A DNA stretch of 40,284 bases, taken from a virus. Lineage: Duplodnaviria; Caudoviricetes. Location of the stretch: IMG/VR virus record IMGVR_UViG_3300027518_000018, positions 1 to 40,284 of that record. One strand, 5' to 3'. The translations under genes were made by a program, and so were the position numbers. Below the pieces are notes generated by a model, which worked only from the letters and a program-made list of their open reading frames with translations, had not been told where the DNA came from and searched no databases. Of this stretch, positions 1,821-39,947 are shown piece after piece (positions within the stretch are counted from its first letter, which is position 1; the number at the start of each line of letters is the position of its first letter).

Positions 1821-2147
1821 ATGGCACAAAATTTTAGAAGATACACAAACAATAACGTAGGCACATCTGCTGTTACATCTTTCACAGCTAACTCATACGA
1901 TACAGTAGTTGGAATATCTATTGCTAATATAACAGGTTCTGCAGTTAATGCAGATGTTTATATTAACGATGGAACGAATGATATTTATTTAGTAAAATCT
2001 GCACCAATCCCTTCAGGTTCAGCATTACAAGTTTTAGATGGTGGAGCTAAGTTTGTTTTACAATCTGGCGATGCTTTAAAAATACAATCTGATACTGCAA
2101 GTTCATTAGATGTTTGGGTTTCAGCAGTTGACGATATAAGTTCATAA
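1821..2147 (+). CDS. Conserved 108-aa beta-rich virion protein following the fibre (putative adaptor), paralog of 38749-39075
   Basis: About 73% aa identity (hand count 79/108) to 38749-39075; same gene context. Confidence 0.75.
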   Translation: MAQNFRRYTNNNVGTSAVTSFTANSYDTVVGISIANITGSAVNADVYINDGTNDIYLVKSAPIPSGSALQVLDGGAKFVLQSGDALKIQSDTASSLDVWVSAVDDISS

Positions 2148-2160
2148 TAGGATTATATTA

Positions 2161-2916
2161 ATGGGTTACTTAGGATATAAACCAGCTGATAAACCTTTAA
2201 CAGCTGCGGATATAACAGATAGCATTATAACATCTGCAAAGATTGTAGATGGTACTATTGTTAATGCAGACATTAATGCATCTTCAGCAATAGCAATATC
2301 AAAAATTGCAGCAACTGGAACTTCTAATCAAGTATTAAGAATGAATAGTGGTGCAACTGCATTAGAGTTTGCAACTCCAGCTGCTGGTGGTGCTTTTAAA
2401 TTAGTTACAAGAACAGCAATTACATCAGATGTATCTTCGGTTTCATTTACAGGATTAACTGCAAATGTAATTCATCATTTTCAATTAAACGCAATAGATA
2501 GTGTGGCTAATGCTGGAGAAGATTTACTTTTAAGAGTTTCAACAAATGGTGGAAGTAGTTATCAAACATCAGGATATTATAATTCTTTATGGCAACATTA
2601 TTCTTCTGGTTCTACAAATAATCAAACAAAAACAGATTCTTTAATAAGTTTAAATGATGGAATGACTGATAGTGGAACTGAAGAAGGAGTTAATGGTTTT
2701 GTTTATATATATAATATTGGAAATTCAGCTCAAAAAGTTATGGCAGTTGGTAATACTGTTTCAGTTGCAGATGCGAATTATTTAAGAAGTAATCACATGG
2801 GTGGAATTTATGATACTGCTGGTAGCGTAACAGCAGTACAATTTTTATTTGATACAGGAAATATCTCAGGAAGCACAAAAGCATTTATAACTCACTATGA
2901 ACAGGTAATAATATAA
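2161..2916 (+). CDS. Putative fibre-tip / receptor-binding module
   Basis: N-terminal MGYLGxxP...ITSAKIVDGTIVNADINAS shared with other tip genes; variable beta-rich C-terminus. Confidence 0.65.
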   Translation: MGYLGYKPADKPLTAADITDSIITSAKIVDGTIVNADINASSAIAISKIAATGTSNQVLRMNSGATALEFATPAAGGAFKLVTRTAITSDVSSVSFTGLTANVIHHFQLNAIDSVANAGEDLLLRVSTNGGSSYQTSGYYNSLWQHYSSGSTNNQTKTDSLISLNDGMTDSGTEEGVNGFVYIYNIGNSAQKVMAVGNTVSVADANYLRSNHMGGIYDTAGSVTAVQFLFDTGNISGSTKAFITHYEQVII

Positions 2917-3122
2917 TGAAAAAAATTGTTAATGGTATTGAAATAGAATTAACTCAAGAAGAAATTTCTCAAAGACAAATTGACGAAGAAAAAGCAGAAC
3001 AAGACAGATTAGCTAGAATTGTTAAAAAAGAAACAGAACTTGCCAACAAACAATCAGCACTAAACAAACTTAAAGCATTAGGTTTGAATGAAGCTGAGAT
3101 TAACTCAATACTGGGGAAATAG
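2916..3122 (+). CDS. Small helical partner (putative fibre assembly chaperone)
   Basis: Coupled (TAATG) to the tip gene; ends KLKALGLNEAEINSILGK. Confidence 0.55.
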   Translation: MKKIVNGIEIELTQEEISQRQIDEEKAEQDRLARIVKKETELANKQSALNKLKALGLNEAEINSILGK

Positions 3123-3230
3123 TATGCTGCATTTATGCTTAATACTATATTTTAAATACATGCTATCTTTAGATTTCATAGTTAAATTTTTTGTGATACT
3201 AAATAACAACCAAGTTAAAAAAATTTAAGT

Positions 3231-3788
3231 ATGCCACTAACAAGAATAAAATCACTAGGAATAACTGATGGCACAATAGTTAATGCCGATATTAATGCTA
3301 GTGCTGCTATAGCTACATCTAAGTTTGGTGCTGGTTCTGTATTGCAAGTTGTATCAACTAATAAAACAGATACATTTACAACAACATCTACTTCATACAC
3401 AGATATAACAGGAATGTCAGCTTCAATTACTCCTTCATCTACTAGTAATAAAATTTTAGTTTTAGTAGAAATAAATGGTGGTGCTTTAGACCAAGCATAT
3501 ATTAAGTTAGTAAGAACTTCTACTGATATAAATGTTGGTGCTGCAGCTGGAAGTAGAACTTTAGCTTCAGGTGGTGATATGTATAATTTAGGAACTTCTG
3601 GTACAATAAGATGTACTCATTTATCATTTTTAGATAGTCCAAGCACAACATCTAGCACAACATATAAAATTCAAGGAAGAATTATTTCAGCAACTACATT
3701 TGCTATTAATCGTTCAACAAATGATGGTGATAGTTCTAATTTAGCAAGAACAGCTTCTAATATTACTTTAATTGAAATAAAAGGTTAA
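3231..3788 (+). CDS. Putative fibre-tip / receptor-binding module
   Basis: DGTIVNADINASAAIA N-terminal motif; VLQVV...SITPSSTSNKILV...LDSPSTTSSTTYKIQ...ITLIEIKG domain, paralog of 39085 and 40020. Confidence 0.7.
   Translation: MPLTRIKSLGITDGTIVNADINASAAIATSKFGAGSVLQVVSTNKTDTFTTTSTSYTDITGMSASITPSSTSNKILVLVEINGGALDQAYIKLVRTSTDINVGAAAGSRTLASGGDMYNLGTSGTIRCTHLSFLDSPSTTSSTTYKIQGRIISATTFAINRSTNDGDSSNLARTASNITLIEIKG
3369..3495 (+). repeat. 127-bp exact repeat, copy 1 (copy 2 = window end 40158-40284)
   Basis: Base-by-base identity from gatacatttaca to gctttagaccaag. Confidence 0.95.
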
Positions 3789-4092: not shown

Positions 4093-4737
4093 ATGTTTAT
4101 TGAAAACAAATATAAAGTTTGGCATGATAAGATAATTGCTAGAGCTAAGAACAGAACATTAGAAGGATATAAAGAAGTTCACCATATCATTCCTAAAAGC
4201 TGTGGTGGTTCAAATGATAAAGATAACCTTGTAGCTTTAACAGCTAGAGAGCATTACATAATTCACATGCTTTTGCCATTCTGCGTAACTAAAAAATATA
4301 GATTTAAAATGATTAAAGGTTTTCTTTATATGAATGTAAAACCAAAAAGCACACAAAGATTTTATAAAATTAATTCAAGAATGTATCAAAAGTTTAGAAT
4401 TGAATATGGTATTTTACATACAGGATTTAAACATACTGAAGAAACAAAAATGAAAATGAGAGGAAAGAAACTTTCAGCAGAAACTAAAGCAAAGATTAAA
4501 TATGCTAGACAGTTTCAAGTTTATTCAGATAAGCAAAGAAAAAGATATAGTGAAATATATTCTAATTCAATTTGGGTTAATAAAGATAATAAATCTAAAA
4601 GAATACAAAAAGAATTAAAGCAAGAATATTTGAATAATGGATATAAACTTGGTAGAGATATGTCTTACATGACTAAAGAATTAAAAAATATATATTCACA
4701 AAAAACAAAAGCATATTGGGAAAGGAGAGTAGCATAG
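4093..4737 (+). CDS. HNH homing endonuclease with NUMOD3-like DNA-binding repeats
   Basis: EVHHIIPKSCGGSNDKDNLVALTAREHYIIH HNH core; HTEETKMKM and LSAETKAKI NUMOD3-like motifs. Confidence 0.88.
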   Translation: MFIENKYKVWHDKIIARAKNRTLEGYKEVHHIIPKSCGGSNDKDNLVALTAREHYIIHMLLPFCVTKKYRFKMIKGFLYMNVKPKSTQRFYKINSRMYQKFRIEYGILHTGFKHTEETKMKMRGKKLSAETKAKIKYARQFQVYSDKQRKRYSEIYSNSIWVNKDNKSKRIQKELKQEYLNNGYKLGRDMSYMTKELKNIYSQKTKAYWERRVA

Positions 4738-5577
4738 TTGTCATATATTGGACGTACTCCCATTGTAGGAAACTTTGTAAAGCTAGATACAATTACTACA
4801 TCTGCTACAGCTACATACAATTTATTAAATGGTGGAGTTTCTTATTACCCACAATCTGCAAACAACTGCATCGTATCTTTAAATGGTGTTATTCAATCGC
4901 CAACTTCAGCTTATACAATATCAGGTTCAACAATCGTATTCTCAGATGCTTTAACTTCATCTGATACAATAGATTTTATTTTAGTATTAGGAGATGTATT
5001 AAATTTAGGTACACCTTCTGATAATACTGTATCTTTAGCTAAACTAACTGCTACTGGAACTAAAGATGCTACAACCTTACTAAAAGGTAATAATACTTTT
5101 GGACTTGTAACACCAAATAATATTTCAACTGATAATGCACAATTAAGATTTATGGCGGCAACTACTTCAACAACAACCTTGACAACACAAAATGTTTTTT
5201 ACAAAACAACTTGGAATCAACAATTAATAGATAATTTTAATGAATTTGATCCAACTACTAATTATAGATTTACAGCAAGTGAAGCTGGTACTTATCTTTT
5301 TAATTGTTTTTGTTCTTTCAGATTAAATAGCGATCAAGATATAGCATTTTTAGCATATTATAAAAATGGTAGTGCATCATCAAACACAGATGTTTATAAA
5401 TCAATTATAGGTTCTGCTGATGGTGAATGTTATATGGCTACAGCATATAAAGTTACCTTGGCTGCTACTGATTATATAGAAATATTTGCAAAATGGACTT
5501 CATTAGGTTCTAGTAGAGAATTCAATAATGGTGCTATTGGTGGAGAAGCCATTTGGACAGGTTGGAAAATAGCATAA
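4738..5577 (+). CDS. Putative fibre-tip protein with C1q/TNF-like C-terminal head
   Basis: TTG start with AGGAG upstream inside the HNH 3' end; MSYIGRTP N-terminus; FDPTTNYRFTASEAGTYLF...TLAATDYIEIF C1q-like pattern. Confidence 0.7.
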   Translation: MSYIGRTPIVGNFVKLDTITTSATATYNLLNGGVSYYPQSANNCIVSLNGVIQSPTSAYTISGSTIVFSDALTSSDTIDFILVLGDVLNLGTPSDNTVSLAKLTATGTKDATTLLKGNNTFGLVTPNNISTDNAQLRFMAATTSTTTLTTQNVFYKTTWNQQLIDNFNEFDPTTNYRFTASEAGTYLFNCFCSFRLNSDQDIAFLAYYKNGSASSNTDVYKSIIGSADGECYMATAYKVTLAATDYIEIFAKWTSLGSSREFNNGAIGGEAIWTGWKIA

Positions 5578-7249: not shown

Positions 7250-7795
7250 ATGAATAAAAAAAAACAAAGGGAAATAAATAGATTATATCAAAGTAAATAT
7301 CGTTTTAATAATAAAGAAAAAGTTAATAAAATAAATAAATTATATCGTTTAAATAATAAAGAAAAAATAGCAATTACTAAAAAAAAATATTATTTAAAAA
7401 ATAAAGAAAAAATTAAAAAATATAATAAAGTTTATAATAAATTATATCGTTTAAAAAATAAACAAAAAATATCTAAAATTAAAAGCGAACATTATTTAAA
7501 AAATAAATATAACATAATAAAAAAAATTAAATTATATCGTTTAAATAATCCTCATACTCAAAGAAATTTGTCTGCCAAAAGAAGAGCATTACAATTAAAT
7601 GCAACTCCTAAGTTTGCCAATCTTAATAAGATAAAAGAGATATATAAGAAATGTCCCAAAGGTTATCATGTAGATCATATTATACCATTGCAGGGAAAAG
7701 TGGTTTGTGGATTGCATGTAGAATGGAATCTTCAGTATTTACCTGCAAAAGAAAATCTTTCTAAATCTAATAAAATTATTAACACCTACCTATAG
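7250..7795 (+). CDS. HNH endonuclease with N-terminal [10 protein letters not shown]-type repeats
   Basis: [43 protein letters not shown] core. Confidence 0.88.
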
Positions 7796-11093: not shown

Positions 11094-11259
11094 AATTATC
11101 CTCTTTCTGTCTTATGTTAGTTGATTTAACTTTTACTTCTCCTATCTTAACCTTAATAAACAATCCTATTTTACTAGGATCAAGTGCATGTTCTGCTGTG
11201 TCAAACTCTTCTACATAAGTAAAAGTGCATTCACCTTTTTTAAGTCTTACAACTTTCAT
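11071..11259 (-). CDS. Hypothetical protein
   Basis: Coupled within the leftward operon. Confidence 0.6.
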   Translation of the reverse strand: MKVVRLKKGECTFTYVEEFDTAEHALDPSKIGLFIKVKIGEVKVKSTNIRQKEDNYDTKRNV

Positions 11260-11549
11260 TACTTTTTCTTTTGTCTAAGTTGTTTAGTCATCTTGCAATA
11301 GATAGATAAATCATCATAGCTGTCTGCTTTATATTTCTTAGTGCAACGATAGAGTTTAAGTGCCATCATTAAATGACCAACATCTTCTGGTTCTAATGCC
11401 ACTTTAATTTTATTAAATAGAACGATAGAGAATAGTTCAGCAAGTAATGCAAAGTTCTCTTCGTAATCTCCATATTCTCTATGGCGATCATCTATAATTT
11501 TCTTTTGTATTTTTTCTTCAAGACTAATGAAGTCTTCTTTATTAATCAT
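11259..11549 (-). CDS. DUF6378-like protein (all-alpha nucleotide pyrophosphatase-like)
   Basis: DR..EYGD..ENF..LA.LFS...DVG.LM..LKL.R...DSYDDL..Y pattern; AAGGAG RBS. Confidence 0.7.
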   Translation of the reverse strand: MINKEDFISLEEKIQKKIIDDRHREYGDYEENFALLAELFSIVLFNKIKVALEPEDVGHLMMALKLYRCTKKYKADSYDDLSIYCKMTKQLRQKKK

Positions 11550-11569
11550 ATATCTCCTTTGTTGTTTTA

Positions 11570-11632
11570 CTCTACCCCTAGGGACAACGAAAGGGAAGGC
11601 ATGACTGCCTGATGAAAACCCTAGGGATAGAA
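11570..11632 (-). ncRNA. Structured RNA element (candidate antisense sRNA or cis-regulatory pseudoknot)
   Basis: 14-bp stem with U-G pairs only on the minus strand, enclosing loops UUUUCAUC and UCCCUUUCGUUGU and an inner AGGCA-GUCA-UGCCU hairpin. Confidence 0.6.
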
Positions 11633-11654
11633 TTAATAGTTACTTACGTAGCTA

Positions 11655-11996
11655 TTAGTATTGTCTATTACCGAAAGACTTATTGCTTGTAAATGGTTTC
11701 TTTTGAAATCCACCAGCTTTAAATCCAGGTTGTTTATTTGCTCCTGCTGTTGCTTGTGCTTCTTTCTTAGTTAAGATCACAGTGTATCCACCTGTTGGAT
11801 TACCTTCTATGTCTGTACCATCAAACGCACAGTAGTCATACCAATCACCATTGATATTCACATTCATCTTCCAATTCTTTCCTTCTGGAGCTTTTGGAGA
11901 ATTAGGTGCTACCATTACTGGTTGATTGTCGCCTGCTTTTTTATTTACGTTTGGAATAAGATTCAAATAGATCTTATTCTTTGGTTGGTCGTTCAT
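11655..11996 (-). CDS. Putative single-stranded DNA-binding (OB-like) protein
   Basis: Downstream of SSAP; beta-rich core with flexible G/K/F tail; mostly positional inference. Confidence 0.45.
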   Translation of the reverse strand: MNDQPKNKIYLNLIPNVNKKAGDNQPVMVAPNSPKAPEGKNWKMNVNINGDWYDYCAFDGTDIEGNPTGGYTVILTKKEAQATAGANKQPGFKAGGFQKKPFTSNKSFGNRQY

Positions 11997-11998
11997 TA

Positions 11999-12604
11999 TT
12001 ATACCTCATTTTGAGTTGTGATCTCATCACGCTTACTATTAAATTTATTTAAAATAGAATTGTAAGTTGCGAGATCTTTTATTTTTATCTGATCAAGTAG
12101 TTCCCTGTTGGCACGCCAAAGGAAATCTAGTTTCGCTGTGTGCGGTGCGTAGTGAACTTTCTTTACCAGTTCATTAATTATACTATCATCATAATTTATA
12201 TTGTTTGATGTAGTATCTTTTCCATTCATTGGCTGTACTGGAATATCTAATTCCTCATACTCTTCCTTTGAAGTTATATCTTCAAGAAGAATACCCATGA
12301 ATGATAAAGCTCGTGTGATTGCAAATGTTTCAGCAATCTCTAAGTAGCCTGGTTTATCACGATATTGCTTTGAGAAACCAGTGGCTATGATATGTTCAGG
12401 ATCTGATTTAGTTATAATACATTTCATTATAACATAACGATCTGAATGTTCTTGTATTACACAATTGATTCCATATTCAGTACCAAACACTTCTCTAAAG
12501 TATTTAATCTTACTCCAAGCTGATACTGTTTTCTTTCCATGTTGATTTAAGTATGAGCCATGAGCTGCACACAAATCATTAACTATTTTTAGTTTGTCTT
12601 TCAT
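11999..12604 (-). CDS. Single-strand annealing protein (Rad52/Sak-like)
   Basis: IIATGFS....YLEIAETFAITRALSFMGI helix pattern; in operon with exonuclease. Confidence 0.6.
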   Translation of the reverse strand: MKDKLKIVNDLCAAHGSYLNQHGKKTVSAWSKIKYFREVFGTEYGINCVIQEHSDRYVIMKCIITKSDPEHIIATGFSKQYRDKPGYLEIAETFAITRALSFMGILLEDITSKEEYEELDIPVQPMNGKDTTSNNINYDDSIINELVKKVHYAPHTAKLDFLWRANRELLDQIKIKDLATYNSILNKFNSKRDEITTQNEV

Positions 12605-12857
12605 TCGTTGTTTCCTTTTTGTTGTTTAAACCCAATCTATTTTTTAATCTATAGACTAAGTCATGTCGTTCATGAATGCAAGAGTAAGCAAATACTTCTT
12701 TACCATTATAGTATAATCTACTCCTGTTATTAACCACTTGATGTTTAGTTAATCTTTTAAAAAACTTATCACAATTATAAGGATCATATCTTACATCATT
12801 CATTTCAAATGTATGAACATAACCATTCATAAGTATAATCGTTAATATAAGTTTCAT
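12579..12857 (-). CDS. Hypothetical protein
   Basis: ORF track; coupled in operon; hydrophobic N-terminus. Confidence 0.55.
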   Translation of the reverse strand: MKLILTIILMNGYVHTFEMNDVRYDPYNCDKFFKRLTKHQVVNNRSRLYYNGKEVFAYSCIHERHDLVYRLKNRLGLNNKKETTNERQTKNS

Positions 12858-14004: not shown

Positions 14005-14030
14005 TTTAAACCTTTCATTGTTGTAAATAC

Positions 14031-14110: not shown

Positions 14111-14141
14111 ATTTTTAAACAACAAAAGAAAGGGTTAAAAA

Positions 14142-14459
14142 ATGAAAGATAAGTTAAACAAACAAACAAAGAAACTGTTGCAAAATTATCACAAAACATT
14201 TGATTGTTTTGGTAACAGAAAAAAAGTTAAGAAAGATACATACGAGTGGTATGTAACAACAGTTGAAAATAATAACTTTGAATATGTTATTAGTAAAAAG
14301 AATAATACTTTTTATATTAATAAAAAAATACCAAACAAAAGTTGTTATCCAAAATACTACAATAATAAATATGCTGGTCAATTTATTGAAGTACAATTTG
14401 ACAAAGCAAAGTCATTAAAAAAGGCTAAACAAATAATAACAAATGATAAGGAGATGTAA
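14142..14459 (+). CDS. Hypothetical early protein
   Basis: First ORF after promoter; GAAAGGG RBS. Confidence 0.6.
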   Translation: MKDKLNKQTKKLLQNYHKTFDCFGNRKKVKKDTYEWYVTTVENNNFEYVISKKNNTFYINKKIPNKSCYPKYYNNKYAGQFIEVQFDKAKSLKKAKQIITNDKEM

Positions 14460-14690: not shown

Positions 14691-14931
14691 TAAAGTTATT
14701 GTTGAGTGGATGGATATAAATTCTTGTGATGATGCTTGGAATAGTGAAGAGCATTTTAAAGATTTAATGCCAGCATCATGTACAACTATTGGTTATCTAT
14801 ATGAAGATACACCACACTTTGTAAAAACATTTGCAACATTTAGTTTTAATACTGATGACACAATAGACTTTGGAGATTGCGTTGTTATTCCTAAAGGCTG
14901 CGTTGTTTCAATTAAGAAATTGGAGAACTAA
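14671..14931 (+). CDS. Conserved phage hypothetical protein
   Basis: V.VEW.D...W...C.T.GYL...IPKGCVVSI pattern; start placed at ATG 14671 after GAGG. Confidence 0.65.
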   Translation: MKPINFDKVIVEWMDINSCDDAWNSEEHFKDLMPASCTTIGYLYEDTPHFVKTFATFSFNTDDTIDFGDCVVIPKGCVVSIKKLEN

Positions 14932-15743
14932 TGGAACGATCAAAAGTTTTAACTGTAATATCTTTAGGAGTTGGAGTTCAATCATCTACTATGGCATTGA
15001 TGTCAGCTAAAGGTGTGCTGCCAAAAGTTGATTGTGCTATCTTTGCAGACACAGGGTATGAGCCAAAGAAAGTTTATGAATATTTAGAGTGGATCAAAAC
15101 TCAATTACCATTTCCAGTTTATACAGTTATGAAAGGCAACATCAAAGATGATATGCTAAACTCTATATCAAATGGTACTAGATTTTTAGTAGCTCCATTT
15201 TATACTAAAAATAGTATTACTGGTAAAAAGGGTATGGTTATGCGTCAGTGTACTAATGATTATAAGATACAACCAATTAGAAAAAAGATTAGAGAGCTGT
15301 GTAGTATAACTTATAAAAAACATTTTCCTAAAGATAAGTTTGTTGATCAGTGGATAGGTATATCTACTGATGAGATTAGTAGAATGAAACCAGCTAGAGA
15401 TAAATATATTAACAATGTACACCCATTAATTGATTTAAAAATGAGTAGAAAAGATTGTCTTAAATGGATGAGTGATAATGCTTTTCCATTACCTGAGAAA
15501 TCGGCTTGTATATGTTGTCCCTTCCATGATGATAAGTATTGGTACTTCATGAAACATAACAGACCAGAAGAATTTGCTGATGCTGTTGAGTTTGATAAAA
15601 AAATTAGAAGAGGATCAAGAAAACAAGATGATGAATTATTTACACACAGAAAATGTATTCCTTTAGATGAAGTGAACTTTGATATTAAAAAAGATCAACC
15701 TGATATGTTTAATAATGAATGCGAGGGAATGTGCGGAGTTTAG
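14931..15743 (+). CDS. PAPS-reductase/PP-loop (adenine nucleotide alpha-hydrolase) family protein
   Basis: ISLGVGVQSS PP-loop, IFADTGYEP, RQCTNDYKIQPI, WIGISTDE..R, KSACICCPFH, C-terminal CEGMCGV. Confidence 0.8.
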   Translation: MERSKVLTVISLGVGVQSSTMALMSAKGVLPKVDCAIFADTGYEPKKVYEYLEWIKTQLPFPVYTVMKGNIKDDMLNSISNGTRFLVAPFYTKNSITGKKGMVMRQCTNDYKIQPIRKKIRELCSITYKKHFPKDKFVDQWIGISTDEISRMKPARDKYINNVHPLIDLKMSRKDCLKWMSDNAFPLPEKSACICCPFHDDKYWYFMKHNRPEEFADAVEFDKKIRRGSRKQDDELFTHRKCIPLDEVNFDIKKDQPDMFNNECEGMCGV

Positions 15744-15928
15744 TAGAGTCTATGATTGATGTTGGAAGTGGATTTGTATTAGCATTATTAATACAGATAT
15801 TTATTTTTCCAATGTTCAATCTATACCATACTATTTTAGTAGGAATTAAGATCGCTTTAATATTTACAGTTGTATCTATTTTAAGATCTTGGTTTTGGAG
15901 AACAATGTTTAATAAAATGAAAGGATGA
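15719..15928 (+). CDS. Small two-TM membrane protein
   Basis: RSLVES..DV.SGF.LA...Q..IFP...FTVVSILRS..WR..F. Confidence 0.65.
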   Translation: MRGNVRSLVESMIDVGSGFVLALLIQIFIFPMFNLYHTILVGIKIALIFTVVSILRSWFWRTMFNKMKG

Positions 15929-15929
15929 A

Positions 15930-16079
15930 ATGATTGACCAACCATTACACGTTGAAGACGTGATTGATATGTATAACGAAAAAATAATCATACTTAAAAA
16001 AGAAATAGATAGATTAAACGAAGAGATACAGGTTTTGCATATAGAACTTATGCAGGAAAGAGCTAAGAACAATGATTGA
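15930..16079 (+). CDS. 49-aa coiled-coil protein
   Basis: AAGGA RBS; MIDQPLHVEDVIDMYNEKIIILKKEIDRLNEEIQVLHIELMQERAKNND. Confidence 0.55.
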   Translation: MIDQPLHVEDVIDMYNEKIIILKKEIDRLNEEIQVLHIELMQERAKNND

Positions 16080-16230
16080 TTTAAAGAACAGAGGATTTAA
16101 TGATCTTGAAGTTATAATTCATAGATTAAAAAATCATGTAAATATTTTAGAAAGATTAATTCTTGAACAGCATAAAGAAATTAAACAACTAAAATATAAA
16201 TTAAAAGAACAAATTAAATCTAATAACTAA
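16072..16230 (+). CDS. 52-aa coiled-coil protein
   Basis: MIDLKNRGFNDLEVIIHRLKNH...; coupled to neighbours. Confidence 0.55.
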   Translation: MIDLKNRGFNDLEVIIHRLKNHVNILERLILEQHKEIKQLKYKLKEQIKSNN

Positions 16231-16466
16231 TGAAAGAAAATACAATGCAAAATAACTGGCAGGAAGAATGGTTAGATATGCCTGAATTTGTACAAGAAAA
16301 ACAAGAACCTTATGCAAAGATTATAATAAGATTTGATAATGAAAAAGATTTAAATGATTTTTCAAAATTAATTAATCAACCATTAAATAAAAAAACCAAA
16401 AGCATTTGGTTTCCAAAATTAATTAGAGGAATAAATTCAAACAAAAGATATGTAGATGAATCCTAG
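16230..16466 (+). CDS. Small protein associated with TAGT-type glycosyltransferase
   Basis: W.DMPEF.Q...IIIRF....D..DF.KLI.Q....KTKSIWFP; overlaps the GT start. Confidence 0.65.
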   Translation: MKENTMQNNWQEEWLDMPEFVQEKQEPYAKIIIRFDNEKDLNDFSKLINQPLNKKTKSIWFPKLIRGINSNKRYVDES

Positions 16467-17277
16467 TTATCCAGTTTACATAGTATCAAAAGGAAGATTT
16501 AATAATTGTCTAACTGTTAGAGAGTTAGAAATTATGAAAGTTCCATATAAAATTGTAGTAGAACCACAAGAATTTGATCTTTATAATAAAAATATTGCAG
16601 CAGAAAAAATATTAAAACTTCCATTTAGTAATTTAAATCAAGGATCTATTCCTGCTAGGAATTGGATATGGGACCACTCAATATCACTTGGTTTTGATAA
16701 GCACTGGATATTGGATGATAACATTGAAGGTTTTCATAGATTAAATAGAAACATGAAACCAAAGGTTAACTCTGGTACAATTTTTAAATGTGCAGAAGAT
16801 TTTATAAATAGATATTCTAATGTAGCTTTATCAGGTTTTAATTATTATAATTTTTGTAAGACAACAGATAAAGTTCCACCCATAGTTTTTAATACAAGAA
16901 TTTATTCATGTATTTTAATTGATAATAAAATACCATTTAGATGGAGAGGAATTTATAACGAAGATACAGATTTATCTATTAGAGTTTTAAAGTCAGGTTA
17001 TTGCACCATATTATTTAATGCTTTTTTGATTGGTAAAATTACTACCATGAGAATGAAAGGTGGAAACACAGATACACTTTATAAAAATGATGGAAGAAAA
17101 AAAATGGCTGAGTCTTTAAAAGAGCAGCATCCTGATATTGTTAATGTTGTTTGGAAGTTTAATAGATGGCATCACAGTGTTAATTATAAACCATTTAAAA
17201 ATAATAAATTAATTAAAAAAAATAATAAAGTTTTTGCTAATAAAATTAATAACTATGGGATGCAACTTATAAACTAA
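16456..17277 (+). CDS. TAGT / GREB1-like GT-A glycosyltransferase (predicted DNA-base glycosyltransferase)
   Basis: YPVYIVSKGR, VVEPQE, ARNWIWDHS, HWILDDNI, YNEDTDLSIR, MKGGNT motifs. Confidence 0.78.
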   Translation: MNPSYPVYIVSKGRFNNCLTVRELEIMKVPYKIVVEPQEFDLYNKNIAAEKILKLPFSNLNQGSIPARNWIWDHSISLGFDKHWILDDNIEGFHRLNRNMKPKVNSGTIFKCAEDFINRYSNVALSGFNYYNFCKTTDKVPPIVFNTRIYSCILIDNKIPFRWRGIYNEDTDLSIRVLKSGYCTILFNAFLIGKITTMRMKGGNTDTLYKNDGRKKMAESLKEQHPDIVNVVWKFNRWHHSVNYKPFKNNKLIKKNNKVFANKINNYGMQLIN

Positions 17278-20095: not shown

Positions 20096-20308
20096 TTAAG
20101 CAACCTCCATATAAGTTTGTTTGATATATTCATCAGATGCAGCTTGTGCCTGTTCTATTGTTTTAGCATTATAATTAGTAAAACAATCAAGTGCATGATG
20201 ATCTCTACTTCCAGTTTCATCTATTGAATAAACATTAAATGTAGAAGTTCCATACCATTCTACTTCTAAATGATCATATTCAAAAACTACTCTTATTTTG
20301 CTTTTCAT
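20096..20308 (-). CDS. Hypothetical early protein
   Basis: ORF track; ACAACAAAGG leader. Confidence 0.65.
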   Translation of the reverse strand: MKSKIRVVFEYDHLEVEWYGTSTFNVYSIDETGSRDHHALDCFTNYNAKTIEQAQAASDEYIKQTYMEVA

Positions 20309-20309
20309 A

Positions 20310-21120
20310 TTATTTACCTTTGTTGTTTAATTAAATAACCTTTTAGGGTATGAATAATAATAAGTAAATACATAAAATGAACTAAAATATTAAATAACTG
20401 ATTTTATTATCTTATTTCTTTATATCTATATTTTACGCCAATTAAAAAAGGGAAAGGCAAAAAGAGAAAATTATATAAAAGAGAAATAGCTTTAAACATA
20501 TCCTGGACATTGGACCAAGTTATAAACAACTAACTATTAGATTGTATTTTAGGAATTTAATAGCAACTAAGATTAAACAATAGATGAAACAAAATCATTG
20601 GTTGTGTGAGTAATTACTAAGATTAAAAGATCAATAAAAGATCCTATTTATAATCACATCCAATCGTTTGCTTGTTATGCGTTTATAATTCGGTGTGATG
20701 TTATTGCAACATTGTGTAATAAATATACAACATTAATTATTAGTAGTGATAATTTATGATTATCAATAGTAATGCCATTATGTTGCAGTGCAAGGGTGAT
20801 AACTATTTATTATCGGAAATGCAGTGTAGGTTGTATTTGGCGTATTATTGCATCCAATTAATTCTATGCAACAATATAGGTGTTGTATAAATATCACATA
20901 ATTTCAGATTGAACACCCCCCCTACACCCCCATAAACCGCCGCCATTTTTATTATATATATACATGGGACTTTTTAGGATACCTTTAGCCAGTCAGCCTT
21001 CCACAGGATTCCGCCGCACCAAAGTTTCCAAAAACATAAATGGGTATATCCACAAAACAACCCGCACCTTTTTCCTTTGCCTGACCAACCTTAATATAAT
21101 ATTAAAATACCACTAATAGT
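20310..21120. other. Longest non-coding region; candidate genome terminus / packaging control region
   Basis: No ORFs in track; divergent between early genes and TerL; several dyad motifs and C-tracts. Confidence 0.55.
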
Positions 21121-23109: not shown

Positions 23110-24735
23110 ATGGGTGAAACGGATTTAGTAAAAGATCTCTTAAAGAGATTTGGAAAATTAGTAACACAAAGACAAACGTGGGAATCGCATTGGCAAGAAG
23201 TTTCAGATTACATGATGCCAAGAAAAGCAGATGTAACTAAAAGAAGATCACCAGGAGATAAACGTTCTGAATTAATATTTGATTCATCACCATTACATGC
23301 AGTGGAATTGTTATCTGCATCTCTACATGGTATGTTAACTAATCCATCTACACCTTGGTTCTCATTAAAATTTAAAAATATAGATTTAGTAGATGAAGAT
23401 GCAGCTAAAGAATGGTTAGAAGATTCAACTGAGAAAATGTATGAAGCATTTAATAGATCTAATTTTCAACAAGAAATATTTGAACTGTATCACGATCTAA
23501 TTACTTTCGGTACAGCAGCAATGTACATTGAAGAAGATGAAGAAGACATAGTAAGATTTTCTACAAGACACATTGGAGAAGTTTACATTTCAGAAAACAA
23601 TAAAGGAAAAGTAGATACAGTATTTAGAAAATTTAAACTTACAGCTCGTGCTGCGATTATGCAATTTGGAGAAAAGAATGTTTCTAAAACAACTAGAGGT
23701 ATTGCATTAAAAGATCCTTATGAAGAAATTACAATTCTTCACGTTGTATATCCAAGAGAGAATTACGATCCTAGAAAAAAAGATAACAAGAATATGCCAT
23801 TTGCTTCTTGCTATATTGAACCAGAAAACAAACACGAAATATCTCAATCAGGATTTAATGAATTCCCATACGTTGTACCACGTTATTTAAAAGCATCATT
23901 TGAAATCTACGGAAGATCTCCTGCTATGACTGCTTTACCAGATGTTAAGATGTTAAATGAAATGTCTAAGACAACTATTAAAGCTGCACAAAAACAAGTT
24001 GATCCTCCACTATTGGTTCCTGATGATGGATTTATATTACCAGTAAGAACAGTACCAGGTGGATTAAATTTTTATAGAGCAGGTACTAGAGATAGAATTG
24101 AACCATTAAACATTGGTGCAAATAATCCATTAGGTTTAAACATGGAAGAGCAAAGAAGAAATGCAATTAGAGATACGTTTTATGTAAATCAATTAATGAT
24201 GCAATCTGGACCACAAATGACTGCAACAGAAGTTGTACAACGTAACGAAGAGAAGATGAGATTACTTGGTCCAGTTCTTGGAAGATTACAATCTGAATTA
24301 TTAAGACCATTAATTGATAGAACTTTTGCAATATTACTTAGAAAAAAATTATTTAGACCAGCACCAGATTTCTTATCAGGTGTAGATATTCAAATTGAAT
24401 ATGTATCACCTTTAGCTAAAGCACAAAGATCTTCTGAACTACAATCTATTATGAGAGCGATTGAAATATTCGGATCACTTGCACAAGTATCTCCAGTATT
24501 TGATCATATTAATATTGATAATCTAGTTACACATTTGGCTGATATTGTTGGAGTTCCTGCTAAAGTATTAAATTCTAAATCAGAAGTTAATGCGATTAGA
24601 CAACAGAAACAACAACAAGCAGATCAACAAATGCAATTGCAACAATTACAACAAGTTGCACAAGCAGGTGGTCAAATAGCTCCACTTGCAAAAGCATTAC
24701 CTGAGGAGGCACAAGAGTTAATTAGATCTGAATAA
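23110..24735 (+). CDS. Portal (head-tail connector) protein
   Basis: YGRSPAM.ALPDVK.LN, MTATEV..R.EE....LGPVLGRLQSE, IEYVSPLAKAQ. Confidence 0.95.
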   Translation: MGETDLVKDLLKRFGKLVTQRQTWESHWQEVSDYMMPRKADVTKRRSPGDKRSELIFDSSPLHAVELLSASLHGMLTNPSTPWFSLKFKNIDLVDEDAAKEWLEDSTEKMYEAFNRSNFQQEIFELYHDLITFGTAAMYIEEDEEDIVRFSTRHIGEVYISENNKGKVDTVFRKFKLTARAAIMQFGEKNVSKTTRGIALKDPYEEITILHVVYPRENYDPRKKDNKNMPFASCYIEPENKHEISQSGFNEFPYVVPRYLKASFEIYGRSPAMTALPDVKMLNEMSKTTIKAAQKQVDPPLLVPDDGFILPVRTVPGGLNFYRAGTRDRIEPLNIGANNPLGLNMEEQRRNAIRDTFYVNQLMMQSGPQMTATEVVQRNEEKMRLLGPVLGRLQSELLRPLIDRTFAILLRKKLFRPAPDFLSGVDIQIEYVSPLAKAQRSSELQSIMRAIEIFGSLAQVSPVFDHINIDNLVTHLADIVGVPAKVLNSKSEVNAIRQQKQQQADQQMQLQQLQQVAQAGGQIAPLAKALPEEAQELIRSE

Positions 24736-24753
24736 CAACTGAAAGGAAAATAA

Positions 24754-24972
24754 ATGGAAGACCAAGTAAATAAATTAAAAGAATATTATAAAATAGTTTT
24801 TGAATCTGATCATGGCAAGATTGTCATGCAAGATTTAGAAAAGAGATGCCACTATAATGCTACCACTAATGTAAGAGGGGATAGTCATGAAAGTGCATAT
24901 ATGGAGGGACAACGCAGCGTTCTTCTATTTATTAAAAACATGCTGCTTAATGATAAACTAAAAGGAAAATAA
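24754..24972 (+). CDS. Bbp19-like small protein
   Basis: YK.VF.S..G..V..DL...AY.EGQRSV...I; portal-scaffold position. Confidence 0.7.
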   Translation: MEDQVNKLKEYYKIVFESDHGKIVMQDLEKRCHYNATTNVRGDSHESAYMEGQRSVLLFIKNMLLNDKLKGK

Positions 24973-27504: not shown

Positions 27505-27708
27505 ATGAAGAAAATCAACGAAGTAAAAACCATTTTACATTTCCAAAATAAAGATTATATCTATCGCTATGTTCTAGTTGATAGATTTAAACATACATCA
27601 ACTGCACATCATGGTTTTGATAAAGACTTAGAACTTACAGAAGCTGAGATCTTTGCATTGGTTAAACCTAGACAATTAAGACGTAAATATATTATAAAGA
27701 AAGATTAA
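27505..27708 (+). CDS. Hypothetical protein
   Basis: ORF track; coupled to HNH. Confidence 0.6.
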   Translation: MKKINEVKTILHFQNKDYIYRYVLVDRFKHTSTAHHGFDKDLELTEAEIFALVKPRQLRRKYIIKKD

Positions 27709-28250
27709 TGAAAAATTGTTTCATTTGTAATAATAAATTTAAAGATACAACTCATAATAATATAAAAAAATTTTGTTCTAAAGAATGTAGAAACAAAAAA
27801 TATTATAATTCACCAAAATCAAAAATACTTTTAAAAATAAGACAAGAAAAATATAATAAAACAGAAAAATCAAAATTAAGATCAAAAAAATGGTATGAAA
27901 CAAAAGGAAAAAAAATTAGAGAACAATATAGAAAAAGTAAAATTGGAAAAATAGTAGTAAAAAATGCTTATAAAAAATGGTCTAAATCAGAACATGGAAG
28001 ATTATATAATTTAATTAGATCAGCAAATAGAAGAGCATTAAAATTAAAAGCCACTCCAAAATGGAGTAATATAAATAAAATAAAAGAAATTTATAAAAAT
28101 TGTCCAAAAGGCTATCATGTTGATCACATTATACCATTAAAAGGTAAAAATGTTTCTGGATTACATGTTTATTGGAATTTACAGTATCTTAAATCTAATA
28201 TAAATATGTCTAAATCCAACAAAATATTAGATAAAAATATATGTTGGTAA
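27708..28250 (+). CDS. HNH endonuclease with N-terminal Zn finger
   Basis: CFIC...FCSKEC; [34 protein letters not shown]. Confidence 0.88.
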   Translation: MKNCFICNNKFKDTTHNNIKKFCSKECRNKKYYNSPKSKILLKIRQEKYNKTEKSKLRSKKWYETKGKKIREQYRKSKIGKIVVKNAYKKWSKSEHGRLYNLIRSANRRALKLKATPKWSNINKIKEIYKNCPKGYHVDHIIPLKGKNVSGLHVYWNLQYLKSNINMSKSNKILDKNICW

Positions 28251-37154: not shown

Positions 37155-38687
37155 ATGACAATATCTTCAACTACAGTTAAGAATAGTTACGCAGGTGATA
37201 ATTCTACAACTACGTTTTCATATACATTTAAGATATTCCAAGACTCAGATATTCAAGTAATTATACGTTCAGCTAATGGAACTGAAACAACTAAGACTAT
37301 TACAACTCACTATACTGTAACAGGTGCAGGTAACGCTGGTGGTGGATCAGTTATATTCACAGCTGGTAATATTCCAACATCAACTCAGACAGTTGTATTA
37401 AGACGTAACATTCCACAAACACAATCAATAGATTATATCGCTAACGATCCATTCCCTGCTGAATCTCATGAAGAAGGTTTAGACAGAGCAACAATGGCAA
37501 TTCAACAATTGCAAGAAGAAGTAACAAGATCTTTAAAATTATCTAAAACAAATACAATGACATCTACTGAGTTTACTGTAGGTGCTACAGATCGTGCTAA
37601 TAAAATTCTAGCATTTGATACTAATGGCGAATTATCAGTTACACAAGAGCTTGGAACTAACAGAGGTTCATGGAGTGCTGGAGTTACATACAATGCCAGA
37701 GATATTGTAAAAGATGGTTCTAACAATAACGTATATCTTTGTAATACAACTCACACATCTACAGGTACAACTCCAATCAGTTCTAATGCTGATGTAGCTA
37801 AATGGGATTTAATTGTTGATGCACAATCTGCTACAAACTCAGCTAATGCAGCTGCGAACTCTGCATCTAACAGTTCTAATTTTTCTAACAACTCATCTAA
37901 TTTTGCTAACGCATCTGCTAATCATGCATCAAATTCTAGTAATTTTGCAAACAATGCTTCTAATTCTGCTAATACAGCTTCAACTTATTTAGCTGATGTA
38001 AGTGCTAATGCTAATGCTGCCGCAAATTCTGCTAGCAATGCTTCTAACTTTGCAAACAATTCTAGTAACAGTGCAAACTCAGCATCAAATCATTCTAGTA
38101 ACTCAAGTAATTTTGCAAACAATTCTAGCAATAGTGCTAACACATCAGCAAACCACGCATCAAATTCTAGCAACTTTGCTAACAATAGTTCTAATAGTGC
38201 AAATGCTTCTAGTAATCATTCTGCCAATTCATCTAACTTCGCAAACAACAGTTCAAATCATGCGGCAAACAGCTCAAACTTTGCCAATGCTTCTAGCAAT
38301 CATGCAAGTAATTCATCTAATCATTCTGCTAATTCTAGTAACTTTGCTAATACATCTAGTAACCATGCAGCTAACTCAAGTAACTTTGCTAATAATTCTA
38401 GTAACTTTGCTAACACTGCTAGTAACGCAGCTAATGCGGCAAACAGTGCAAGAGATGCAGCTCTAGCCGCAACAGATAGTTTTGATGATACATATTTAGG
38501 TGCTAAAGCAAATGATCCTTCAGTAGATAATGATGGTGATCCTTTAAATGCTGGTGATCTTTACTTTAACACAACATCTAGTGTATTGAAATATTATACA
38601 GGTTCTGCTTGGTTAAATGTAGAGGCTACTGATACAAGCACTTTTGCAACAAAAGGTTTTGCTTTAGCTGTTTCTATTGCATTATAA
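37155..38687 (+). CDS. Tail fibre with T7 gp17-like N-terminal anchor and Asn-rich heptad stalk
   Basis: Y.GD.STTTFSYTFKIF..SDI.V, E.GLDRATM.IQQLQE; FDDTYLGAK..DP..DNDG..L..G.LYFNT; C-terminal GFALAVSIAL. Confidence 0.88.
   Translation: MTISSTTVKNSYAGDNSTTTFSYTFKIFQDSDIQVIIRSANGTETTKTITTHYTVTGAGNAGGGSVIFTAGNIPTSTQTVVLRRNIPQTQSIDYIANDPFPAESHEEGLDRATMAIQQLQEEVTRSLKLSKTNTMTSTEFTVGATDRANKILAFDTNGELSVTQELGTNRGSWSAGVTYNARDIVKDGSNNNVYLCNTTHTSTGTTPISSNADVAKWDLIVDAQSATNSANAAANSASNSSNFSNNSSNFANASANHASNSSNFANNASNSANTASTYLADVSANANAAANSASNASNFANNSSNSANSASNHSSNSSNFANNSSNSANTSANHASNSSNFANNSSNSANASSNHSANSSNFANNSSNHAANSSNFANASSNHASNSSNHSANSSNFANTSSNHAANSSNFANNSSNFANTASNAANAANSARDAALAATDSFDDTYLGAKANDPSVDNDGDPLNAGDLYFNTTSSVLKYYTGSAWLNVEATDTSTFATKGFALAVSIAL
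37830..38450 (+). repeat. Coding heptad (21-nt) repeat, consensus (F/H/S)ANNSSN
   Basis: FANNSSN-HAANSSN-FANASSN-HASNSSN-HSANSSN...; synonymous codons vary between units. Confidence 0.9.
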
Positions 38688-38748: not shown

Positions 38749-39075
38749 ATGGCACAAAATTTTAGAAGATACATAGCAAGAAACGTAACAACTTCTGCTA
38801 GTACATTATTAACTGCAAATAGTTACGATACAATTATAGGAATATCTATAGCTAACACAACTGCTTCAGCTGTTAATGCTTCAGTATATATTACATCAAG
38901 TGCTGCAGATTATTACATAGTAAAAAATGCACCAATTCCAGCAGGATCATCATTACAAGTTATTGATGGTGGTGCTAAATTCGTTCTTGAATCTGGTGAT
39001 GCACTAAAAGTAATTTCTGACACAGCTACATCTTTAGATGTAATTGTTAGTGCAGTTGACGATATTTCAACATAG
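38749..39075 (+). CDS. Conserved 108-aa virion protein (putative adaptor), paralog of 1821-2147
   Basis: MAQNFRRY...VSAVDDIS. Confidence 0.75.
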   Translation: MAQNFRRYIARNVTTSASTLLTANSYDTIIGISIANTTASAVNASVYITSSAADYYIVKNAPIPAGSSLQVIDGGAKFVLESGDALKVISDTATSLDVIVSAVDDIST

Positions 39076-39084
39076 GAATAAACA

Positions 39085-39654
39085 ATGCCTTTTATAGGAA
39101 ATACACCAGCACAAGTTCCTTTAACTTCTGCGGATATAGCTGATGGTATTATAACATCTGCAAAGATTGTAGATGGTACTATTGTCAATGCAGATATAAA
39201 TGCAAGTGCCGCAATCGCTTCTACAAAATTATCTGGTGTTGGTGCTACTGCTGGACAAGTTATTCAGGTTTTAGGTGCTACCGATTCAACACAAAGAAGT
39301 ACAACATCAACATCTTTTGTTACTGCTTCAAATACATTATCAGTAACAATTACTCCATCAGCAACTTCTAGTAAATTTGCAATATTTGCTACTCATTATG
39401 GTTATACTAATTCTGCTGTTGTTTTTTATACGATTTTTAAAGATTCAACCAATTTAGGTGGTTCAAATGGAATAGGATATATTGATACTTTTAATGCTGC
39501 AATAGATGGTGTTGTATCTTATTGTCATTTAGATTCACCAAATACAACTTCTGCAATAACTTACCAATGCTATATGAGAGTTTCTGGTGGAACTGGATAT
39601 ATGGGTTCTACTAATCGTGTAGCACAAATAATAGTAATGGAAATTAAAGGTTAA
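39085..39654 (+). CDS. Putative fibre-tip module
   Basis: N-terminus like 2161 (ITSAKIVDGTIVNADINAS), C-domain like 3231 (ITPS.TS.K...LDSP.TTS..TY...EIKG). Confidence 0.7.
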   Translation: MPFIGNTPAQVPLTSADIADGIITSAKIVDGTIVNADINASAAIASTKLSGVGATAGQVIQVLGATDSTQRSTTSTSFVTASNTLSVTITPSATSSKFAIFATHYGYTNSAVVFYTIFKDSTNLGGSNGIGYIDTFNAAIDGVVSYCHLDSPNTTSAITYQCYMRVSGGTGYMGSTNRVAQIIVMEIKG

Positions 39655-39656
39655 TT

Positions 39657-39947
39657 ATGAAAATAAATATTTGTACTGCAATAACTTCAATAAAAAAAGA
39701 TGCACAAGTTTCAGTATCAGGAGATGATATTAATACATTAATTTGGCATGATAATAATCCAACAAACATTACTAATCAACAAATACTAGATAAACAATCT
39801 GAATTACAATCATTAGAAGATGTTTATGAAAATAGACGTAAAGAATATGGAACTGTTGTATTTCAATTAGATGAGATTTATCATAATGGTTTAGATAGCT
39901 GGAAAGCTAGAATAGCTAATATTAAACTTAACAATCCTAAGGAATAG
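39657..39947 (+). CDS. Putative fibre assembly chaperone
   Basis: AQVSV..DIN...W, R..EY.....QLD..Y.....W...I..IK...PK; paralog of 3790. Confidence 0.65.
   Translation: MKINICTAITSIKKDAQVSVSGDDINTLIWHDNNPTNITNQQILDKQSELQSLEDVYENRRKEYGTVVFQLDEIYHNGLDSWKARIANIKLNNPKE

Follow-up and report, generated by a model that had tools for sequence, protein, structure and literature searches.

A conserved structured RNA in HTVC010P-type pelagiphages and its predicted pairing with early-type ribosome binding sites

The P4 CI RNA is a phage antisense RNA with loop sequence complementary to the ribosome binding site (RBS) that it blocks, and RNAs of the c4/P4 CI type are processed from a longer transcript by RNase P. 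GcvB, a host small RNA of enteric bacteria, is Hfq-dependent. It represses multiple targets through ACA enhancers, pairing upstream of the Shine-Dalgarno (SD) sequence (PMC3879156; here and below, citations refer to the sections of an article that were drawn on). The c4 RNA of phages P1 and P7, an antisense RNA that blocks an RBS through complementary loop sequence, controls antirepressor mRNA and immunity in these temperate phages (PMC12197685) and is catalogued as Rfam RF01695 (PMC2864571). In Staphylococcus aureus the regulator RNAIII carries UCCC in three hairpin loops, and these C-rich open loops seed pairing with several RBSs; the cuckoo RNAs of Alphaproteobacteria (RSs0680/CcsR, C14, NfeR1), chromosome- or plasmid-borne, consist of two to four adjacent hairpins, without a multiloop, whose variable stems show a fixed loop motif, CCUCCUCCC, and one of them, RSs0680a, binds Hfq (PMC4615179). 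The SAS motif of cluster K mycobacteriophages is phage-specific, sits at the RBS position of non-structural genes, and contains bases unexplained by 16S rRNA; four genomes have a single copy in the opposite orientation, which is not described as an RNA, with RNA or protein binding left open (PMC3203893).

The element considered here is a 65-nt minus-strand RNA (positions 11569–11633) in the window, which is the whole 40,284-nt stretch of viral DNA that was analyzed. A 15-bp outer stem encloses an inner hairpin and two open loops, the second with the anti-SD core CCUUUC. It resembles the cuckoo RNAs in its alphaproteobacterial setting and in having variable stems that display an invariant anti-SD loop motif, but it is phage-borne, has one closing helix with an interior or large loop, carries CCUUUC and not CCUCCUCCC, and belongs with host-like genomes in which Hfq was not found; membership in that family was rejected on loop motif and hairpin number. 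As with the ACA enhancers of GcvB targets, the GU-rich tail of loop 2 faces an ACAAC leader element, although here the predicted pairing would span the enhancer as well as the SD and be directed at phage genes. Like GcvB and RNAIII it has an accessible, conserved seed with complementarity to several RBSs, and many of its variants have two C/U-rich segments recalling the several loops of RNAIII, a host regulator unrelated to the element in sequence and context. Like the c4 and CI RNAs, it is phage-encoded, with loop sequence complementary to RBSs; unlike them it has no Rfam match, faces a leader class with no dedicated co-varying target, occurs in lytic phages (neither integrase nor antirepressor was found in the window), and has no conserved second antisense arm (the anti-AUG arm is seen in 12 of 62 interiors), so it was not placed among them. 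The inverted SAS copy and SAS itself recall the element and its leader motif, although motif and host differ. The element was not described in the literature searched, including the sections used of PMC2864571 and PMC12753301; the supplements of PMC10690425, an article with over ten thousand viral candidates, were searched in part without a match and may list it.

The window is an HTVC010P-type pelagiphage of the lytic subgroup I, with a portal protein 74–78% identical to those of HTVC010P-type (subgroup I) isolates and 57% identical to that of the temperate HTVC028P. Phages of this subgroup are described as having no integrase and no RNA or DNA polymerase (PMC8477408), and neither integrase nor antirepressor was found among the 65 window proteins scanned. 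We infer a freshwater SAR11 host, for which relatives of a Pelagibacteraceae genome stand in wherever host data are given. The element's operon runs nuclease, strand-annealing protein, a 113-aa gene, a DUF6378 gene, and a DnaA-HTH gene. The 113-aa gene (11655–11996, minus strand) is always directly upstream of the RNA. It is labeled a putative ssDNA-binding protein by position alone, since neither profile nor fold matches confirmed that identity: there was no PHROG or Pfam match, its protein model (pLDDT 69.9) gave no Foldseek match at E 0.001 and a best VIA Z of 2.5, and the Atlas lead, DUF736, reached only 0.87. Downstream of the RNA, the DUF6378 gene (11259–11549, minus strand) gives way to other genes in some relatives that nonetheless keep the RNA. 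Elsewhere in the window there are paralogous tail-region genes at both ends of the record (1821–3788 and 38749–39947; a 108-aa pair, tail-fibre-like genes, and three of the phrog_9114 family), three homing or HNH/endonuclease VII-like genes among the late genes (4093–4737, 7250–7795, and 27708–28250), and PAPS-reductase-like and glucosyltransferase-like genes in the middle operon (14931–17277), which suggest DNA modification.

The folded element is real. A first-pass annotation of this DNA had described a structured minus-strand RNA with a 14-bp stem; fold and strand were both confirmed, while the outer stem proved to be 15 bp long. RNAfold gave –29.0 kcal/mol for the minus strand (z –6.90, with none of 200 shuffles equally stable), where the MFE structure is also the centroid, and –23.8 kcal/mol with a weaker centroid for the plus strand; two U-G pairs lie within the outer stem, P1. 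All parts are on the minus strand. A small hairpin, P0 (11634–11657), sits on the stop codon of the upstream gene, with similar hairpins of varying sequence in relatives, and is followed by the 5′ arm of P1 (11619–11633), loop 1 (11611–11618), the 5-bp inner hairpin P2 (11597–11610), loop 2 (11584–11596), and the 3′ arm of P1 (11569–11583). Loop 2, made up of the anti-SD core and the GU-rich tail, costs 0.4 kcal/mol to open and is predicted to be the pairing seed, its tail complementary to the ACAAC leader element. Each arm of the window's stem contains an 8-bp palindrome.

No Rfam covariance model matched at gathering score within the window, and a search of eight loci at E up to 5 returned one weak, unrelated match elsewhere, so the Rfam search proposed in the first-pass annotation yielded nothing relevant. 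An intrinsic terminator was rejected, none being called at the element on either strand and P1 being followed by mostly A-rich sequence with no U-tract. A separate small-RNA promoter inside the operon was rejected as well, with fewer promoter-like sites (14) than in shuffles (25.5). Further copies of the element were found neither by covariance model (54 sources; the freshwater model scores marine forms weakly) nor by a helix scan of 16 genomes, and L084, from a pattern scan, was an unrelated match.

A strong helix occupies the same site in all ten cultured relatives that have the 113-aa gene, with unrelated stem sequences, and the closing helix is present in 430 of 432 loci, a redundant set that includes pattern-selected loci. 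When loci were found by protein alone (sets that contain duplicates, with 116 pattern-selected loci left out of the counts), CCCUUUC followed the gene in 80 of 82 freshwater loci, 68 of 79 from the HTVC010P query, and all 78 from the Skadi query; the remaining 11 of the HTVC010P set have UUCCUUUC. Among 62 distinct interiors, a 5′ U-run occurs in 62, CUUUC in 61, CCUUUC in 57 (the other five are without it), and a GU-rich 3′ end in 61, with U-runs flanking the interior in 62 and 61. Co-variation of the stem around a conserved loop, which had been proposed as a check, was seen among relatives: of the 31 distinct freshwater variants, 25 were compared, and among these 13 of the 20 base pairs show changes in both partners (eight of 15 in P1 and all five in P2), 96.6% of cells pair, and loop 2 has invariant columns, with CCUUUC in every variant. 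None of 500 shuffles had as many double-sided changes, a control inflated by relatedness. The stems of different clades share no sequence, and G-U pairs outnumber A-C pairs by 73 to 1 in 47 distinct helices, which were picked for pairing, so that the ratio is partly circular. The architecture varies from a single large loop, as in HTVC024P and 204P, to apical display in HTVC010P and 034P, where the anti-SD motif is at the tip of the inner hairpin; P2 is missing from simple marine forms. Overall, these comparisons point to a conserved RNA family that is uncatalogued, and comparative support for its predicted class-specific antisense pairing is good.

Several relatives depart from this pattern. 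In the 18.4 of 36.4 kb of the temperate HTVC028P that were examined, neither the element nor a GAAAGG leader is seen, and no early small-gene cluster is annotated there. In the freshwater relative L030 (about 4340–4380) the whole element and the next RBS are gone, leaving a short microhomology junction that may be a deletion or an assembly artefact. One marine variant (L437–L444) has a C-rich UCACCCU or UCCCCU at the inner-hairpin tip, without CCUUUC. In a different pelagiphage, Pelagibacter phage Baldr (L378, 32245–32297, plus strand), a look-alike helix behind a small HTH-like gene has a U-rich loop that combines CUUUC with a GU-rich tail, and a terminator-like U-tract comes next. Of 49 annotated starts, the one that this helix matches best has an early-cluster leader, at 37903 (–20.8, mean –8.8, sd 3.2).

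The 16S genes of all five SAR11-like genomes examined end in CCUCCUUUCU, which makes CCUUUC a copy of the 16S tail tip and GAAAGG an SD shifted to that tip. In 16 phage genomes GAAAGG is found at 48 of 261 starts on the element strand and 25 of 742 on the opposite strand; in 400 kb of one SAR11-like genome it is found at one of 393 starts. AGGAG is more frequent at middle and late starts (88 of 742) than at early ones (14 of 238), and the ribosome-optimal GAAAGGAG occurs at none of 1003 phage starts. The 16S tail by itself also favors early starts (–7.5 vs. –5.6), and the early preference of the loop holds among strong-16S-pairing starts (60 early vs. 71 late, p 8e-6). Hfq was found in none of the five SAR11-like genomes and RNase III in all five. 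The sequence just past the 16S end is U-rich and loop 2-like in five SAR11-like genomes (L448–L451, L467); one of the five shares a GUUGUUUU run, whether by chance or through precursor-rRNA mimicry.

Pairing was scored with an in-house script as an accessibility-weighted duplex that omits target opening, against script-called starts of which some are wrong; duplex scoring of whole interiors, ignoring inner structure, was abandoned after giving spurious GC-rich matches for long interiors. Assignment to gene classes (early, own-operon, middle, late) followed strand and position and not any measured timing. The six leaders quoted in the first-pass annotation as antisense to the loops are all present in the sequence, and loop 2 alone places all of them in the top nine of 73 starts (14004, 14142, and 24754 at ranks 1–3, 11549 fifth, 20308 seventh, and 12604 ninth), which supports the view that loop 2 is complementary to a type of leader common to several phage genes. 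Early-strand pairing in the window also stood up to shuffled controls of the sort that annotation had called for: none of 100 loop shuffles or 30 leader shuffles did as well.

The best predicted target in the window is the nuclease leader at the head of the RNA's own operon (14011–14024, minus strand; 11 bp with one G-U, –14.3), followed by the leader of the first gene of the divergent transcript (14119–14148, plus strand; –13.1), which is the only GAAAGGG leader present. A further strong predicted target is the leader of a Bbp19-like late gene after the portal (24735–24760, plus strand; –12.8). This early-type leader conflicts with an early-only rule; it is kept in the freshwater genomes examined, where the late gene at 24754 is a top match. 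Moderate predicted targets are the leader of the first gene of the early small-gene cluster (20302–20326, minus strand; –9.6) and that of the strand-annealing gene, annotated from relatives (12598–12627, minus strand; –8.8), and the RBS of the DUF6378 gene (11556–11565, minus strand) is a partial loop 2 match at –10.6 kcal/mol.

Two of these regions vary among relatives. In freshwater loci the divergent transcript (14142–14459 in the window) begins with a variable ORF with a strong RBS, ahead of an HTH-like gene; this ORF is 105 aa long in the window and mostly 28–32 aa in relatives, and in most marine isolates examined the HTH-like or next gene comes first. At the nuclease gene, HTVC010P (L087, 30234–30477) has some 240 nt of very AT-rich sequence between a GAAAGGG leader and the annotated start; in two relatives (L217 and L263) the leader is directly on the gene. 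In HTVC034P (L088, 5327–5420) the annotated start is apparently too far upstream, and a likelier one follows the GAAAGGG leader found at 5393.

Across the 16 genomes, strong pairing (z below –2) was found for 52.5% of 122 early-cluster starts, 37.9% of 116 in the own operon, 14.7% of 156 middle starts, and 11.6% of 586 late ones, with control values of 6.3% for host and 4.0% for random windows (1920 each). The top start belonged to the early cluster in 13 genomes, the own operon in one, and the late genes in two, and was on the early strand in 14. After removal of three near-duplicates, no loop shuffle out of 100 reached the observed top-three score in seven of 13 genomes; in the other six, 1, 2, 3, 3, 5, and 11 per 100 did.

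Loops also pair better with leaders of their own genome than with those of others, by 1.56 kcal/mol relative to the row/column-mean expectation (permutation p 5e-5; marine only, p 7e-4; no advantage within the freshwater clade, p 0.30), though the genomes are related and these p values overstate independence. In 15 distinct freshwater leaders the base after GAAAGGG is T in 12 and A in three, and the loop base is A in 112 of 129 loci; in marine leaders it is A in 51, G in 12, and never T, and the facing loop base is U in all 280. Within-clade tests of single-base co-change were not significant (p 0.09 and 0.65), and at the level of clades the co-change of loop and leader may amount to one or two evolutionary events. 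The window itself has the minority U-CCC loop, a mismatch to the T of its one GAAAGGG leader. The nuclease leader was rejected as sole partner, one-to-one co-change with the loop not being found.

Other parts of the first-pass annotation fared less well. It had taken the two loops for a bipartite antisense to RBS and start codon. Loop 1 keeps its U-run in all 62 distinct interiors, but the anti-AUG part is clade-limited, with UUUCAU opening just 12; loop 1 and loop 2 scores are uncorrelated over the 73 window starts (rho 0.10, p 0.40), and freshwater variants without UUUCAU face the same AUGAAA leaders (9 of 12 vs. 18 of 27). As a general principle the design was therefore dropped. A cis pseudoknot with the RBS at 11549 would have to cross a 15-bp helix with a 3-nt linker, which is probably too short, and all 40 010P-type and all 34 Skadi-type variants lack an SD-like motif for the next gene. 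Nor does immunity of the C4/CI type fit phages of an integrase-free subgroup (PMC8477408), a window with no integrase among its 65 proteins, or the missing element in the examined half-genome (18.4 of 36.4 kb) of temperate HTVC028P. The proposal of a multi-target translational silencer remains plausible, given the conserved loops, co-varying stems, and shared leader class.

RNA-library contigs, which give no ends or strand, cover the operon in four runs, one of them spanning 11566–11816; contig X4 ends 3 nt past P1, a single case that is not evidence of an RNA end. Matches were found in 24 RNA runs, at small shares in every one.

The explanation judged probable, on the strength of the sequence comparisons, is that the element is a trans-acting, multi-target silencer of early translation through predicted pairing with GAAAGG-type early RBSs. 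The RNA would accumulate with the operon transcript, either as its 3′ domain or as a processed piece clamped by P1, and its pre-opened seed would pair without Hfq, which fits host-like genomes with RNase III and no Hfq found. In early leaders, the loop 2 seed would cover the SD together with the ACA-rich enhancer that precedes it, and as the RNA accumulated, translation of early genes and of its own operon would fall, most late genes would be spared, and ribosomes would shift to these late genes, mostly with AGGAG or no SD. A wider two-class SD code, with GAAAGG marking early genes, AGGAG or no SD late ones, and a single Hfq-independent mimic of the 16S tail silencing the early class, is offered tentatively and is somewhat more doubtful than not.

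The element could instead act only in cis, P1 protecting or defining an mRNA end or processing site and the loop pairing back with RBSs of its own operon as feedback. Its position is tied to one gene's 3′ end, all five hosts have RNase III, the window's best match is the operon's first gene (the nuclease leader, 2.4 kb upstream), and the downstream DnaA-like gene ranks second in genomes G045 and G046. However, an invariant loop would be superfluous in a plain processing stem, several marine nuclease leaders have no SD, and the best match in 13 of 16 genomes is in the early cluster, 4–9 kb off and past an operon on the opposite strand, which makes this reading unlikely. Hardly different in probability is a decoy, in which the loop copies the 16S 3′ tail or U-rich single strands and binds a protein and not mRNAs, candidates being ribosomal protein S1, a maturation factor, an anti-phage nuclease, or the product of the adjacent gene. 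The identity of CCUUUC with the 16S tip, the loop 2-like post-16S sequence at five host loci, the near-universal flanking U-runs, and the paired C/U-rich segments of many variants would all suit a decoy; beyond the core, on the other hand, the loop departs from 16S toward phage leaders and shifts with them by clade. A host shut-off acting on host SD sequences would likewise draw on this mimicry of the 16S tail, yet the motif is rare at host starts (the one in 393 above, in 400 kb of one SAR11-like genome), which score near random (6.3% vs. 4.0%), and of all the readings this one is the hardest to credit.

Superinfection exclusion as the main role, with a resident phage's RNA silencing early genes of a related second phage, is improbable: predicted cross pairing between loops and the early leaders of other genomes does reach about –8 to –17 kcal/mol, but own-genome fit exceeds cross fit, and lytic carriers have no prophage state in need of protection (PMC8477408). 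As a side effect, exclusion is compatible with silencing of early translation. It is very improbable that the element is a DNA-level inverted repeat, or the relic of an inverted RBS kept similar by recombination, with no function as RNA. Its place beside nuclease and strand-annealing genes, the palindromes in the window's arms, and the relative L030 without it could be read that way; the excess of G-U over A-C pairs (partly circular, as noted), the co-variation of the inner hairpin as well as the stem, and the unrelated stem sequences of different clades argue against it.

HTVC010P-type phages are described as encoding no RNA or DNA polymerase (PMC8477408), and how expression is timed in a streamlined host is the question addressed here. 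If the silencing of early translation by this RNA is borne out, one RNA addressing a leader class would be a timing mechanism, and an RNA-only switch from early to late expression would operate in one of the ocean's most abundant phage groups. It would also give a reason for private RBS motifs on non-structural genes, such as the mycobacteriophage SAS, and would offer a design for Hfq-free multi-gene silencers. Cultured phage-host pairs exist in HTVC010P, Skadi, and Greip on HTCC1062.
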